Both the position numbers and the translations under genes were made by a program. Positions 10,943-21,872 of a stretch of 64,000 bases of DNA are shown one piece after another. Numbering within the stretch: position 1 is the stretch's first letter; each line of letters begins with the position of its first letter. Source of the DNA: an uncultured Candidatus Saccharibacteria bacterium (lineage in GTDB: Bacteria; Patescibacteriota; Minisyncoccia; Phycocordibacterales; JAKFXT01). Below the pieces are notes generated by a model. The model made no database searches. It had not been told where the DNA came from and saw only the letters and a list, made by a program, of their open reading frames with translations. The stretch is taken from the NCBI GenBank assembly GCA_964385825.1, contig CAYLPX010000001.1, positions 84,493 to 148,492 of the forward strand, in the 5' to 3' direction.

Positions 10943-12310
10943 ACTAACTTTTGTGCCTTCTGGGGTGTCGTCCAAGGAATAACCCATTCCTGCAATTTCA
11001 CTGCGAATGGCGTCAGAGCGAGCAAAATCTTTTTTCTCTCTTGCCACTTCACGTTCTTTGAGTAAGTTTTGTACTGCAATCGGTAGCTCCAACTCTTCTT
11101 CTTTTGCAGTTTTGTCCAAGTGAAGTCCGAGTACTTCATCAAACTTTAGAATTGTCGCTCTTTTATCAGCATCGGATATATCAGATTTTAAAACTTCAAA
11201 CACAAGGGCGAGCGCCTGTGGGGTACCAAGATCATCATCAATAAATTTTCCAAATTTCTCAATACTTGCTTTGTCGGGTGAACCACCCTCCGGCAGGGCG
11301 CTTACTGTTTTGCAAAGGTTGGTATATGCAGTTTGGGCACCCTCTAGTGCCTCAAAGCTGAAGTTCATTGGAGAGTTGTAACGAGATTGTAGTAAAAGAT
11401 ACCGGTATGCAAGTGGGGAAATACTTTTTTCAATAAGTGTCTTGAGGGTAATAAAGTTGTCTCCTGATTTGGCCATTTTTTCTTCTCCCATATTAAGGTG
11501 TGCATTGTGTAGCCAATAGTTCACATACTTTTTATCAGTAGCCTTTTCGGATTGAGCGATTTCGTTTTTATGATGGACGGGAATGTGGTCAATACCACCA
11601 GTATGAATATCAAATGGCTGCCCGAGGTATTTCTCACTCATGGCAGAACATTCTATGTGCCAGCCAGGGAACCCTTTACCCCACGGAGCATTGTACCCAA
11701 GCTCCTCGTTAAATTTCCAGAGAGCAAAGTCACGAGGATTTTTCTTCTCACTATTAGTTCCAATGCGGGAATGCTCGTCGTCTATGGTTGATGCGCCGCC
11801 GAAGTTGTCGTACGAAGGAAAGGTACTTGTATCAAAATAGAGTCCATCGTTGGTGCTGTATGTTGCTCCTTTATCAACAAGTTTTTGAATAAGGCTAATG
11901 TCTTCTGGGATATGGTCACTTGCAAAAGGGAAATGTTCAGGGGTTTCTATATTAAGCGTTGTTAAATCTTCCTTAAATCTTTCAAAATAAAAATCTGCTA
12001 TTTCGCGCATAGCTACAAGGGTCATGGGCTTTCCTTCGCGCTTAAGAGCCCTTGTCATCTTATCGTCGCCATCATCCCCATCACTTGAGAGGTGACCAAT
12101 ATCAGTTACGTTTATAACTTGAGTTACTTTATACCCGTGCCACTGTAGTGCGCGGCGAACTGTGTCTGCAAATACATACGAGCGAAGGTTGCCGATATGG
12201 GCATAGTTGTAGACGGTAGGACCGCAATTATACATACGGACTTCGCCTTCGGTAATAGGCTTAAACTCCTCTTTTTGCTTAGTTAGGGTGTTATAGAAAA
12301 CTAGACTCAT
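10934..12310 (-). CDS. cysS: cysteine--tRNA ligase
   Basis: HIGH motif (HIGN) and KMSKS (KMAKS), with full-length CysRS similarity. Confidence 0.9.
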   Translation of the reverse strand: MSLVFYNTLTKQKEEFKPITEGEVRMYNCGPTVYNYAHIGNLRSYVFADTVRRALQWHGYKVTQVINVTDIGHLSSDGDDGDDKMTRALKREGKPMTLVAMREIADFYFERFKEDLTTLNIETPEHFPFASDHIPEDISLIQKLVDKGATYSTNDGLYFDTSTFPSYDNFGGASTIDDEHSRIGTNSEKKNPRDFALWKFNEELGYNAPWGKGFPGWHIECSAMSEKYLGQPFDIHTGGIDHIPVHHKNEIAQSEKATDKKYVNYWLHNAHLNMGEEKMAKSGDNFITLKTLIEKSISPLAYRYLLLQSRYNSPMNFSFEALEGAQTAYTNLCKTVSALPEGGSPDKASIEKFGKFIDDDLGTPQALALVFEVLKSDISDADKRATILKFDEVLGLHLDKTAKEEELELPIAVQNLLKEREVAREKKDFARSDAIRSEIAGMGYSLDDTPEGTKVSKK

Positions 12311-17084: not shown

Positions 17085-17100
17085 GTCGGGATATTGGGAG
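17085..17100 (-). repeat. degenerate copy (15 of 16 nt) of the tRNA-Pro 3' end, 25 bp downstream of the tRNA
   Basis: gtcgggatattgggag compared with gtcgggatactgggag at 17123-17138. Confidence 0.5.
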
Positions 17101-17123
17101 CGTTACGTCTTTTCAAAACCCTG

Positions 17124-17195
17124 TCGGGATACTGGGAGTCGAACCCAGTGTTATGTGCACCCCATGCACATGTGTTACCGGTACACTATACCCCG
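17124..17195 (-). tRNA. tRNA-Pro (anticodon GGG)
   Basis: Minus-strand cloverleaf. Acceptor CGGGGTA pairs with TATCCCG. D stem is GTGT/ACAC. Anticodon stem TGTGC/GCACA carries loop ATGGGGT. T arm is CTGGG-TTCGACT-CCCAG. CCA is not encoded. Confidence 0.85.
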
Positions 17196-17298
17196 ACAGG
17201 ATTTTTAAAAGCCAGAATTTTTTAATTGTATACAATATAAAAAAATTCGTTCTGTATGTCCACTAAGTAAAGAAGTTTACTTAGATGGCTATCCAGAA

Positions 17299-17335
17299 CC
17301 CCCATGCACGTGTGTTACCGATACACTATACCCCG
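17299..17335 (-). repeat. copy of the tRNA-Pro 5' half (acceptor 5' strand through the anticodon loop; about 35 nt, 2 mismatches plus 1 extra C), 108 bp upstream of the tRNA and 3 nt from the stop of the adjacent gene
   Basis: cccatgcacgtgtgttaccgatacactataccccg compared with 17161-17195. Confidence 0.7.
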
Positions 17336-17338
17336 TAC

Positions 17339-17893
17339 TTATTGCTCAATAGTATAAGACTTATAAAGCGTAACTGGAAGTCCCGCAGCTTCAGCTTTTT
17401 TTATAGTGTCACCAGTACCATAACTCTTGTTTACATGGAAGGCATAGACTTCATCGGAAAAAGTAACTTCTTCAATATGTCGTAGATCATACTGGTCTTG
17501 GGTTATGTCCCCACTGTCTTTGCGTACTTCAAACATTGAACTTGGATTTCTTTGTTTTATTATTTTTAAAATATACTCAATGTTATCTATGTCAGCATCA
17601 GTAATAGTTTCTGGTTTCCAGTTTTTGCGATAGTCAGCGATGAAATGGTCGAGTCGAGCAGGGATAAAGATGCGGATGCGGGTGCAGTCAGGGTTCAATT
17701 TTACAAACTCGTCCATAGCGAAATAGTCTACGCCGGTAGCTCCTCCAGTGACAAGGCCATCACCACGTTCAAAAACTTTGCGGGCCGCCTCGCGCACGTC
17801 TTGCTCCACTTCTTTATTCCATAGTCGCCATGACCCAGTGAAAATTACCCAGCGCATAAGGTATGAAAATACCATATTTTTGCCATTTTTCAT
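17339..17893 (-). CDS. DprA/Smf-like (SLOG-type) Rossmann-fold protein, single domain
   Basis: VIFTGSWRL, GDGLVTGGATGVDYFAMDE and IRIFIPARLDHF match the three conserved DprA/LOG Rossmann motifs. ATG at 17893 lies directly after the DoxX terminator. Confidence 0.45.
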   Translation of the reverse strand: MKNGKNMVFSYLMRWVIFTGSWRLWNKEVEQDVREAARKVFERGDGLVTGGATGVDYFAMDEFVKLNPDCTRIRIFIPARLDHFIADYRKNWKPETITDADIDNIEYILKIIKQRNPSSMFEVRKDSGDITQDQYDLRHIEEVTFSDEVYAFHVNKSYGTGDTIKKAEAAGLPVTLYKSYTIEQ

Positions 17894-17908
17894 AGAGGTG
17901 CTGAGATA

Positions 17909-17939
17909 CAAAAAAACCGGAGAAGACCCCGGTTTTTTT
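17909..17939. terminator. bidirectional terminator (aaaaaaaccgg-agaagacc-ccggttttttt)
   Basis: Read directly. Confidence 0.6.
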
Positions 17940-19952: not shown

Positions 19953-19964
19953 AAGACCCAAAAC

Positions 19965-19995
19965 AAAATCCTCCGGCCAAAAGTCGGAGGATTTT
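19965..19995. terminator. bidirectional terminator (aaaatcctccg-gccaaaagt-cggaggatttt)
   Basis: Read directly. Confidence 0.6.
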
Positions 19996-20086
19996 GTTTT
20001 GGAAAACTACACGAAATACAGGGGGATCATGGACGGGGACATGGGTTTTATAAGTTTCCTTCTCTAGTACTAATGTTCGCACAATA

Positions 20087-20196
20087 TATCTTTTGCGTAA
20101 ATAACTATAGGCTATGCCGAGGAGAAAAACTTATCCACTTCCCCGTCTGTAGTAATTTTTTAGTTTGGACGCGGTTCGTTATTTACGCAAAAGATA
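20087..20196. repeat. 18-bp perfect inverted repeat (tatcttttgcgtaaataa / ttatttacgcaaaagata) with a 74-bp spacer, followed by a nested 11-bp inverted repeat gcatgttgtgc/gcacaacatgc (20199-20241) and three copies of gcacaaNat
   Basis: Exact matches read from the sequence. No convincing ORF spans the region. Confidence 0.6.
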
Positions 20197-20306
20197 GCGC
20201 ATGTTGTGCAACAAAGGGTTCCCCTATATCGCACAACATGCTTGGCAAAAAACCTTCTAATTGCATGAATGTTTTTTGCTTAAAATGCACTTAAAATTTT
20301 AATACA

Positions 20307-20333
20307 AAAACAGGGGAGTCTCTCCCCTGTTTT
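20307..20333. repeat. palindromic hairpin aaaacaggggag-tct-ctcccctgtttt, copy 1 (immediately 3' of the 2-TM gene stop; acts as a bidirectional terminator)
   Basis: Identical to copy 2 at 21496-21530 except for one loop base. Confidence 0.7.
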
Positions 20334-20335
20334 AA

Positions 20336-21457
20336 TTAGTCACCAGTTTTTTGAGTTTTAAGTAGATTTACTAACTCTAGTATTAATTGCTTATCATATT
20401 TAATTTTGTTCTCAATTACCGGCTCCGTAAAAATTACGTTTAAACTTCTTAATAATATTGGATCTTTTGCGGGCTCATTTGATGGAAATTGATTTCTCAG
20501 ATTTATCATTGTCTGAGTCGCAACATCTTTAAAGGAGTATGCCTCATAAAGGCGTCGATGGTTTGAATATTGTTGTGCGCTGAAAATAGTAAAGTAAGCT
20601 GGAATTAGAAGAATAGCGAAATGTAAAAGGGCTGATCCTATACTTATATTCTCACCGCTACGTATTAGTAATAGTAAACTAAGGGCAACAATTGTTGCTC
20701 CAAACAATGAGCTAAGCAGGAGCCAAAATATAGAGCCACTAGGATACGGGATTTTAAATTTATTAAAAAATGGGGTCTTTAGCCAATTAATTTTAAGTGT
20801 TTTGTGTTCTGCGGCTTTTTTAGCCGAATCAGTTGCATTTGCTTTTAATATTAAACTCACTGCCTCCTTATCTTTTTCAATTAAGTCCCTTGCACGTTCT
20901 AAGGCTAGTTTAATTAAATCCGCATTCTCAATTAATTCATCGATTAGCTCCTCTGTTGGTGAAAATTTATTTTTTAATTCTGTAAGTTCAGCTGCAATAT
21001 TTTTAATATTATCTTTTTCAATATCCCACTCATTTTTAAAAGATTTTAAAATTACATCGTATTTATTTTCGAATAAATCTTCAATAAAATTTTTATCTAG
21101 AAAGTCTGATTGCTGGGTGAATAAAAAATGATAACGGCCTAAGCTATTATAAATTTCAACCTCAAGACCTTTTAAATCATTAATTAATTCTTGTCTACGA
21201 GGTACATCTAGGAATGTAATAACTCTACTATCGATAAAGGTGAGTAAGGATTGAAGGGAATTGTTAATTTGGCTTTGAATTGTTGCTGGGAGTGTGCTAA
21301 TTATCTGATTTGATACTATATTGTCAAAAAAACTTTTTAATCTTTTAAAAACTGGTTCAGTATCGCTAAGGTCGCCAGTGGGACCAAGATCTTTTCTACT
21401 AAGTCTTGCCCAGTCAATTAAACCATAGCGCTCAAATTTTTGGTATATATCTTGCAT
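20336..21457 (-). CDS. hypothetical protein (about 373 aa). N-terminal 230-aa helical cytoplasmic domain, two TM helices and an 80-aa C-tail. Very AT-rich codon usage.
   Basis: Long ORF with local GC near 30%, well below neighbouring genes. TM segments are WLLLSSLFGATIVALSLLLLI and LLHFAILLIPAYFTIF. The start is ATG 21457 or TTG 21463. Confidence 0.55.
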   Translation of the reverse strand: MQDIYQKFERYGLIDWARLSRKDLGPTGDLSDTEPVFKRLKSFFDNIVSNQIISTLPATIQSQINNSLQSLLTFIDSRVITFLDVPRRQELINDLKGLEVEIYNSLGRYHFLFTQQSDFLDKNFIEDLFENKYDVILKSFKNEWDIEKDNIKNIAAELTELKNKFSPTEELIDELIENADLIKLALERARDLIEKDKEAVSLILKANATDSAKKAAEHKTLKINWLKTPFFNKFKIPYPSGSIFWLLLSSLFGATIVALSLLLLIRSGENISIGSALLHFAILLIPAYFTIFSAQQYSNHRRLYEAYSFKDVATQTMINLRNQFPSNEPAKDPILLRSLNVIFTEPVIENKIKYDKQLILELVNLLKTQKTGD

Positions 21458-21495
21458 ACTCAATTTAGTCGAAGTCTACACCTGTCCTAAAAAAA

Positions 21496-21530
21496 GTCAA
21501 AAACAGGGGAGCCTCTCCCCTGTTTTTGAC
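21496..21530. repeat. palindromic hairpin gtcaaaaacaggggag-cct-ctcccctgtttttgac, copy 2, with a partial third half-repeat tcccctgttt at 21531-21540
   Basis: Direct repeat of the 20307-20333 element flanking the AT-rich gene. Confidence 0.7.
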
Positions 21531-21551
21531 TCCCCTGTTTGTTCTTTTAAA

Positions 21552-21872
21552 CTATTGGCCTAAATCTACCTTTGGTGGATCAATGGCTGTGGGTCTGCCA
21601 GCCTTGAGATCCTCTAAGGCCCCAATGAATGGAGTCCAGATAAGCTTGATGAAAACGTCGTTATAGAGGTAGGTAGCAGGTTTTTCTAGGTAGTGGGACC
21701 AGATGCCTACACTAAGATCTCTAACATAACCAAAGTTACTCTGACCAGTTGGTGAGTCTACGATACCCTTGAGGCTAATGCCAAAATAGCTGATTGAAAG
21801 CAGGGCGATAATAAGGAGTACGAGAAGGCCGATGATTCCTTTATTTGTTTGACGAGCACCAACTTGATTCAT
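21552..21872 (-). CDS. hypothetical small membrane-anchored protein (106 aa)
   Basis: N-terminal TM segment and a conserved-looking soluble domain. No family recognised. Confidence 0.4.
   Translation of the reverse strand: MNQVGARQTNKGIIGLLVLLIIALLSISYFGISLKGIVDSPTGQSNFGYVRDLSVGIWSHYLEKPATYLYNDVFIKLIWTPFIGALEDLKAGRPTAIDPPKVDLGQ

Follow-up and report, generated by a model that had tools for sequence, protein, structure and literature searches.

The stretch of DNA considered here (the window) is a 64-kb piece of the chromosome of a small-genome bacterium of the Candidate Phyla Radiation (CPR)/Patescibacteria, Paceibacteria-like in its affinities (contig CAYLPX010000001.1, forward-strand positions 84,493 to 148,492; positions below are those of the window). 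On its minus strand, at 20336..21457, lies an open reading frame (ORF) for a 373-aa protein with two transmembrane (TM) helices, bracketed by two near-identical palindromic hairpins and set among cell-envelope and division genes. Upstream of it are MurG, GluRS, a coiled-coil M23 peptidase and p106, a 106-aa small membrane protein; downstream are p197, a 197-aa lysozyme-like protein, an EVE-domain protein and DoxX; FtsW is also close by. The reading to which we lean, if only slightly, is that the gene forms a horizontally acquired, stand-alone and self-contained cassette for a SLATT-like two-TM membrane effector. Its product would probably act against phages, a function that we infer from the company kept by its relatives.

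The composition of the ORF sets it apart. Its GC content is 31.8%, against 43.2±2.0% for 45 other ORFs of the window (z = -5.8), and no other gene in the 64 kb is as rich in AT; an earlier note on this DNA had put the local GC near 30%, far under the neighbouring core genes. The GC content at third codon positions (GC3) is an outlier as well, at 23% against 39.2±3.6% for the same 45 ORFs (z = -4.5). Public gene calls use the ATG start adopted here, and an alternative TTG two codons upstream would yield 375 aa. A promoter-like site, TTGACT-16-TAGACT (21473..21500, minus strand), matches the sigma-70 consensus at 9 of 12 positions in a consensus scan, a consensus match only; its -35 hexamer is the final six bases of the 3' arm of the p106-side hairpin, and it ends 16 nt upstream of the ATG. 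The exact 373-aa protein is found on at least 14 metagenomic contigs, and those examined are 99.98-100% identical to the window, with the same gene context.

We modelled the protein with AlphaFold2 from a 60-sequence family alignment and obtained a confident fold, with a mean predicted local distance difference test score (pLDDT) of 89 and a predicted template modelling score (pTM) of 0.50. Helices run to residue 217 and are followed by a beta-hairpin (222-240), TM1 (243-266), a 6-residue turn and TM2 (273-295); the TM2 helix runs on to residue 323, two further helices come after it, and the helices 243-266 and 273-323 exceed a pLDDT of 90. Hydropathy windows above 1.6 at residues 240-269 and 271-295 agree with the model, and the two-TM hairpin (residues 243-295) is thus encoded at 20573..20731 on the minus strand, its outside loop being about 6 residues long. 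Segments rich in lysine and arginine flank both TM helices, so that by the positive-inside rule both termini would lie inside and almost nothing would be exposed outside. The earlier note had described a helical cytoplasmic domain, two TM helices and a short tail. The helical N-terminal part (about 217 residues, then the beta-hairpin) and the TM pair stand; the tail is a helical module of 78 aa (residues 296-373), predicted to be cytoplasmic, and together with TM2 it is the most conserved part of the family. It carries the motif QQ[YF]xxH[RK][RK]LYExYxFK...[IV]IFxEP, with Y288, Q296, E305, Y307, F309, M317, F343, E345 and P346 near-invariant. The N-terminal region varies more across the family, one branch having tandem coiled-coil repeats in its place.

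Both ends of the gene carry the same palindrome. The copy on the p197 side (H2; 20307..20333, minus strand) reads AAAACAGGGGAG-TCT-CTCCCCTGTTTT, forms a 12-bp stem around a 3-nt loop and starts 3 nt past the ORF stop. The copy on the p106 side (H1; 21495..21531, minus strand) has a perfect 17-bp stem and the 3-nt loop CCT, with a minus-strand run of seven Ts at 21488-21494, and its 27-nt core lies at 21500-21526. The string CAGGGGAGNNNCTCCCCTG belongs to this GGGGAG hairpin palindrome. Together, H1 and H2 form a direct repeat of 29 nt with one mismatch, at a spacing of 1193 nt (0 matches expected, from 100 shuffles), around a single-gene unit of 1.16 kb. Between H1 and the p106 stop codon lies an orphan third half-site, CTCCCCTGTTT (21530..21540), which with its flank is 79% complementary to 20297-20320 (inverted repeat I4). 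The earlier note had the left copy exactly and had set the right one at 21506-21530, which has to be corrected to the core position given above; it was right that the copies differ by one loop base (TCT versus CCT) and that the right copy has an extended stem followed by a partial third half-repeat.

The two hairpins share the shape of the other bidirectional terminators in the window, namely an A-run followed by a perfect GC-rich stem with a 3-nt loop and then by a T-run; a terminator scan lists both. They have what marks a Rho-independent terminator: a GC stem-loop with a U-run, directly 3' of a coding region and stable as sense-strand RNA. As minus-strand RNA, H1 folds at -32.3 kcal/mol (z = -6.8) and H2 at -18.2 kcal/mol (z = -5.7). 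From fold and position we predict that H1 is a strong intrinsic terminator of the M23-p106 operon and that H2 terminates the cassette. Every other terminator stem in the window is unique and none is repeated. The palindrome has no further copies in the 64 kb, which is the part of the host chromosome scanned in full, nor in IMG/VR contigs or the other loci fetched, save for an orthologous site in 21 kb of a sister genome. As far as these data reach, it is therefore neither a repetitive extragenic palindromic (REP)-type repeat nor a generic terminator of many genes. The earlier note's suggestion of a REP-like element is not supported, as the many dispersed intergenic copies typical of REP sequences and bacterial interspersed mosaic elements are not seen in the 64 kb or the 21 kb of the sister genome; its other suggestions, a duplicated terminator or a cassette insertion, are supported. 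The hairpins do not accompany the family gene in other hosts. Weak, below-threshold Rfam matches to sraA over the hairpin were rejected.

The genome of a sister species shows the same place with other contents. The closest other species (locus L009; about 75% aa identity over 13 flanking genes) shares with the window the order MurG-GluRS-M23-p106-[X]-hairpin-intergenic region-p197-EVE-DoxX, and there X is an unrelated 125-aa ORF (11703-12080) with its own terminator. This ORF is high in GC relative to its genome and matches no Pfam family. At 12148-12172, 17 bases past its terminator, L009 carries AGGGGAG-AGA-CTCCCCTGTTTTTG, a hairpin with the same stem as H2 and an identical loop (AGA in gene orientation), and both hairpins adjoin an intergenic region that is conserved in blocks. 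Because stem, loop and position are the same in L009, H2 is ancestral. In L009 no hairpin follows p106 directly; H1, the p106-side copy, is therefore confined to the lineage of the window and looks new. The L009 stem is lengthened by G·U pairs that function on the gene-sense RNA only, which suggests selection at the RNA level.

The sister-genome comparison that the earlier note had proposed thus finds different cargo in the same slot, and the 373-aa gene itself has no tblastn match in any of L009-L025, the sister locus and 16 other related loci. Its absence despite syntenic flanks, together with the GC and GC3 outlier, argues for the foreign origin that had been proposed, with the caveat of an AT bias across the family that we take up below. 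The earlier note had also named what would count against it, a hairpin that is a common terminator combined with a gene that is syntenic in all relatives, and neither is the case. The upstream edge of the slot is p106 (21552..21872, minus strand), which ends the conserved MurG-GluRS-M23 peptidase-p106 block, has orthologues downstream of M23 in L009, L010, L011 and L015 and matches no Pfam family; the downstream edge is the p197-side intergenic region (19953..20306), in which alignment with the sister species finds the conserved blocks. The interval from M23/p106 to p197 spans 1.1-8.3 kb in more distant relatives, where its cargo includes NUDIX, NADAR, two DUF1653 genes, an ABC transporter and a tyrosine integrase. 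In L010 (11576-19323), 8 kb of accessory genes low in GC lie in the slot past p106, the NUDIX, NADAR and two DUF1653 genes among them. This position seems to have been a hotspot for accessory genes for a long time, and the hairpin probably serves as the M23-peptidase/p106 operon's resident intrinsic terminator. On the sequences compared, the space between p106 and H2 is one that takes up foreign genes.

Such a bracket invites the idea of a mobile cassette, in which the hairpins would be its ends or recombination sites (of the kind of integron attC, Xer/pdif or miniature inverted-repeat transposable elements (MITEs)), insertion would be specific to the palindrome and the recombinase would be encoded elsewhere. 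We consider this improbable, although the 29-nt direct repeat around a single gene and the sister species with other cargo before the same hairpin both suit it. The orphan half-site and the complementary outer flanks also fit, and hint at, a longer ancestral hairpin that was entered at its centre, and a MITE version could draw on possible 12-bp terminal inverted repeats, CTCCCCTGTTTT...AAAACAGGGGAG, at 20322-21511. However, no homologue of a recombinase, integrase or transposase was detected in the 64 kb; neither the window, the sister locus nor the viral contigs contain another copy of the site; the cargo of L009 lacks a second, bracketing hairpin; the site, a perfect 27-nt palindrome around a 3-nt loop, is unlike dif or attC; and the family gene occurs in other hosts without hairpins.

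The protein has no place in the curated libraries: against Pfam, NCBIfam, PADLOC and PHROG the window protein gives nothing significant. Its only match in PADLOC-DB 2.0 is PbeC over the coiled-coil region (E 0.0017, 15 bits), which falls short of membership, and its relatives give there either nothing or coiled-coil matches to LmuB/JetC. Word-indexed homologue searches returned 2, 4 and 6 matches, the first two at 39% and 31% identity. Because the protein is biased in composition, such searches perform poorly on it and an exhaustive profile search was needed. Across 1.84 billion cluster representatives, this found 244 at E<=1e-3, of which 42 reach E<=1e-30; most are 320-450 aa long. The earlier note's statement that no family is recognised accordingly holds for the curated libraries, whereas a rare, uncharacterised family of 244 representatives does exist. 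Searches of the PDB by sequence (full-length and C-terminal profiles) and by fold gave nothing specific and no match to a solved structure.

The one curated family that recurs among the weak matches is SLATT_1. The NCBIfam profile (NF033634) matches 5 of 60 family members, with a best E of 8.7e-5, and the Pfam profile (PF18181) matches 2 of 60, with a best E of 2.6e-4. These matches weaken when the query is cut to TM2 and the tail, and 10 weak, longer family members scanned as a possible bridge gave no SLATT. The architecture is that of SLATT proteins, a hairpin of two to three TM helices with flanking cytoplasmic helices, by both hydropathy and the AlphaFold2 model. As for the operons in which SLATT genes are expected, in one lineage (L077/78) the family gene lies about 5 kb from a weak SMODS match, and in the window a SLOG-like ORF lies 2.4 kb off and is not adjacent. 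We regard a SLATT resemblance as plausible from these comparisons, short of membership by the curated cut-offs. The structure and family comparison suggested by the earlier note has thus delivered a confident two-TM model, and neither a SLATT assignment nor a significant PHROG match.

Phage ancestry was weighed alongside. If the gene were a prophage or phage-derived remnant, for instance for a superinfection-exclusion or holin-like membrane protein, its foreign composition would be expected, and so might its best structural matches in the viral library, which are uncharacterised phage proteins (Foldseek against BFVD: Siphoviridae sp. A0A8S5TVZ3, E 6.6e-6, and A0A7G8Z7W7, E 3.8e-4). We rate this origin as very improbable. 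The insertion is a single gene with no phage genes at its flanks; tblastn of 50,697 phage records gave no match, nor did tblastn of plasmids or blastn of E. coli genomes; and scanning IMG/VR with the family alignment gave no confirmed relative. A protein of 373 aa with a 240-aa cytoplasmic domain is also unlike holins, and its PHROG matches are non-significant. A holin proper, which is small (<150 aa) and stands in a lysis cassette beside an endolysin, was rejected as a candidate given the length of the protein and the lack of phage context; the M23 peptidase next door belongs to the conserved genes of the chromosome.

The relatives of the protein suggest what it may do. We called ORFs and clustered neighbours in 39 family loci (L001, L002, L026-L062) and in four loci from exact-protein look-ups. 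A DNA methyltransferase lies within two genes of the family gene in about 7 of the 16 lineages with usable context, and these methyltransferases have 6 homologues in 202 kb of family loci versus 0 in 323 kb of control CPR loci. Placement inside or next to restriction-modification (R-M) systems of type III, which the window copy lacks, is seen in L001, L030, L041, L042 and L046-L054. One arrangement is that of L042 and L046-L054, which read SoFic, type III Mod, family gene, a 261-aa protein and type III Res, with the start of the family gene abutting or overlapping the Mod stop; PADLOC identifies the Mod and Res of these operons as MTase_III (E 2.8e-216) and REase_III (E 3e-278). In L041, Mod (TypeIII_RM_meth domain) overlaps the family gene, L001 has Mod-Res-family gene, and L030 has Mod, a 174-aa ORF and the family gene. 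A literature search found no such family embedded in type III R-M, only an unrelated extra helicase in N4-methylcytosine (m4C) type III systems (PMC8259958).

Other settings are more varied. The family gene stands beside a divergently transcribed LexA/S24-methyltransferase fusion in L035; in L036 an EcoRI-type methyltransferase and DUF6602 are followed by the family gene, DUF6680 and T5orf172; and in L032 the gene upstream encodes a 799-aa protein with NPPY and DxxxGxG motifs and no Pfam match. The L077/78 island combines a methyltransferase, an S24 peptidase, the weak SMODS match, a large serine recombinase and Rep. Directly upstream of the family gene, overlapping or abutting it, L077 (7093-7998, 301 aa) and L028/29 (L028 5224-6156) have a partner gene of about 300 aa; the two copies are 42% identical and belong to no Pfam family. 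Within the five-gene operon of L046 (6045-14091), the family protein has 449 aa and two TM helices, with three tandem repeats of about 61 aa in an N-terminal coiled coil, and the 261-aa partner of this type matches neither Pfam nor PADLOC. The family gene is broken by an in-frame TGA in L030 (1698-2817) and in L036 (9251-10306, at the start of TM2); these copies are either pseudogenes or come from hosts that read TGA as sense (code 4 or 25).

These neighbourhoods bear directly on a rival that we hold to be a real, if minor, possibility, namely that the gene encodes an ordinary lineage-specific accessory membrane protein, such as an envelope or stress scaffold, with no role in conflict. Its AT-richness would then reflect a composition rich in K, N, I and L, and the R-M neighbourhoods would reflect mere co-residence in islands. 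The position of the gene beside the M23 peptidase, MurG and FtsW is what such a protein might show, and so is its fixation in all contigs of the species. The placement of the relatives argues otherwise: family genes that begin at or within the end of Mod (L041 and the L046 group) or lie between Mod and Res (the L046 group) point to a shared operon rather than co-residence. The sister species and all other relatives with the envelope block lack the gene, and GC3 is an outlier beyond what total GC conveys. With relatives wired into R-M operons and mobile defence islands, and with the recurring remote similarity to SLATT_1, a membrane-perturbing effector of the abortive-infection type becomes the inference of choice. 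The earlier note had called the architecture typical of conflict effectors; the R-M and defence-island relatives and the weak, recurring SLATT_1 matches lend that putative role indirect support.

Several observations weigh against the effector cassette that we favour. Within the window, tblastn of the 64 kb found neither the ~300-aa partner nor any homologue of Mod, Res, Fic, the 261-aa partner, SMODS or the recombinase, and in about half of the lineages whose context is usable no defence gene lies close by (L026, L038, L060, L062, L075), as the accessory-protein alternative would also predict. In 19 of 21 loci from other hosts, the family gene is lower in GC than its flanks, by 3-13 points and whatever the host, so that part of the GC bias of the ORF is the protein's own composition; AT-rich family genes fit frequent transfer as well as a composition intrinsic to the protein. 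Among the contigs with exact p106 matches, every one that reaches past p106 has the gene, and no variant of the species with an empty site was seen. All SLATT matches lie under the curated cut-offs, and the window protein itself gives none at E<=0.1-1; the SLATT-annotated giant-virus proteins that make up 5 of the top 27 BFVD matches are non-significant (E 0.4-1.6). Finally, the three left arms against two right arms at the locus fit neither a simple target-site duplication nor a simple Campbell integration. No single insertion model was adopted for these arms, as one instance leaves their parse ambiguous.

If the effector reading is right, we envision the following course of events. A single-gene cassette comprising its own promoter, the 373-aa ORF and a terminator would have arrived by horizontal transfer and landed between p106 and the resident intrinsic terminator of the M23-peptidase/p106 operon. 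The longer, p106-side hairpin would have arisen with or after the insertion, either by duplication of the terminator as the cassette inserted or by a single crossover of the Campbell type, in which a hairpin on the incoming DNA recombined with the resident hairpin. Either origin would leave the 29-nt direct repeat, and either way both transcription units would be insulated. In the protein, the large cytoplasmic helical N-terminal domain would be a putative sensor or autoinhibitor, and the TM hairpin with the conserved cytoplasmic tail would be the conserved core that executes the response. On a trigger derived from a phage or from another defence system, the protein may oligomerise in the membrane, with putative pore formation and toxicity as the outcome, and the window copy would represent a stand-alone version.

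A bolder extension, which we think rather unlikely, is that the family serves as a membrane 'guard' of R-M. In Mod-X-Y-Res operons, the type III enzyme would hold the two-TM protein inactive, and the membrane would be permeabilised once a phage neutralises restriction, so that a pore would do what the nuclease does in the PrrC system described below; the CPR copy would be a free-standing derivative, captured at a terminator hairpin through recombination. Were this so, terminator palindromes could be landing pads for single-gene defence cassettes in minimal genomes.

Even in its plainer form, the effector reading, if true, would add an unannotated effector family to the anti-phage repertoire, and would provide a second abortive-infection-type gene wired into an R-M operon, the first with a membrane protein. 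Since the genomes of CPR bacteria are tiny and few defence systems have been recognised in them, a hidden defence cassette of one gene would be relevant to the way in which these bacteria withstand phages. The locus also offers a before-and-after view of a foreign gene placed between an operon and its terminator, with neither transcription unit disturbed.

Other features of the surroundings deserve mention. Relatives of the M23 peptidase among GTDB species representatives are all Patescibacteria/CPR metagenome-assembled genomes, labelled Paceibacterota, Nomurabacteria, Adlerbacteria, Taylorbacteria or 'Saccharibacteria'. The intergenic region at 19953-20306 (~350 bp) contains the p197 terminator (19958-20002), blocks shared with L009 such as TATTTNCGCAAAAGATATATTGTGCGAACATTA, a perfect 19-bp inverted repeat (20087-20105 / 20178-20196) and a hairpin at 20199-20241; it matches no Rfam family and could be a small RNA or a regulatory region. 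An Rfam scan of 17-22 kb of the window found tRNA-Pro only. Next to this tRNA, a 190-aa ORF (17339-17911, minus strand) carries a SLOG/DprA-like GGATGVD motif, with only weak matches to a PHROG DprA-like family and PADLOC PsyrA; it is absent from L009 and all other loci. The tRNA-Pro segment beside it (17085-17335) is inverted relative to L009, and the two together suggest a second small insertion or rearrangement. This SLOG-like ORF was considered as a partner of the 373-aa protein and rejected, as it stands apart from the gene and is not found together with the family elsewhere. One same-species contig (L007, 6878-7388) diverges from the window within the p197 gene, at about 19796, through either strain variation or an assembly chimera.

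Set against known systems, the locus combines familiar kinds, a conflict effector with two TM helices carried by a defence-island cassette and a gene inserted ahead of a terminator, with a family that is missing from Pfam, NCBIfam, PADLOC and PHROGs and with a duplicated-terminator bracket that is neat but a single example. SLATT proteins are predicted pore-forming effectors with two to three TM helices that serve as exchangeable accessories of cyclic-oligonucleotide-based antiphage signalling systems (CBASS), of restriction through an RNA-acting adenosine deaminase (RADAR) and of defence-associated reverse transcriptase (DRT) systems (bioRxiv 10.1101/2021.12.02.470933). The present family resembles them in its two-TM hairpin, its cytoplasmic helical extensions and its occurrence as exchangeable accessory or effector genes in defence islands, one relative being in an island with a SMODS gene. 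It differs in having a large, conserved helical domain of ~145-220 aa at the N-terminus and a C-terminal motif peculiar to it. Its main association also differs, in that DNA methyltransferases and type III R-M take the place of SMODS, SLOG or reverse transcriptases.

The R-M operons recall PrrC of the type I system EcoprrI, which is held latent under the R-M enzyme and fires when a phage inhibits restriction (PMC12707154). Like the anticodon nucleases PrrC and RloC, the family gene is an extra gene within an R-M operon, and the Mod-X-Y-Res order of the L046 group would follow the same genetic logic. PrrC, however, is a soluble ABC-ATPase/nuclease of type Ic systems, whereas the protein here has two TM helices, its relatives go with type III systems and the window copy has no adjacent R-M genes.

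At the DNA level, integron cassettes have an adjacent integrase, are promoterless and carry imperfect attC sites of 57-141 bp; attC sites have extrahelical bases, and dif sites are arranged as 11-6-11. The locus resembles integron attC and Acinetobacter pdif modules in that a single gene lies between direct repeats of a short inverted-repeat site, with other cargo in the sister. In contrast, it has a promoter-like site of its own, occurs at one locus and has no integrase or Xer partner detected nearby, and tblastn with the L019 integrase found no homologue of a tyrosine recombinase in the window; the features of an integron cassette are thus not those seen here. In form, the locus is also close to bidirectional Rho-independent terminators, with which both hairpins share the A-run, stem, 3-nt loop and T-run right after stop codons. 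What sets this pair apart is that the same 29 nt occur twice, 1.19 kb apart, with a half-site beside them, and we read that arrangement as the record of an insertion or duplication event.

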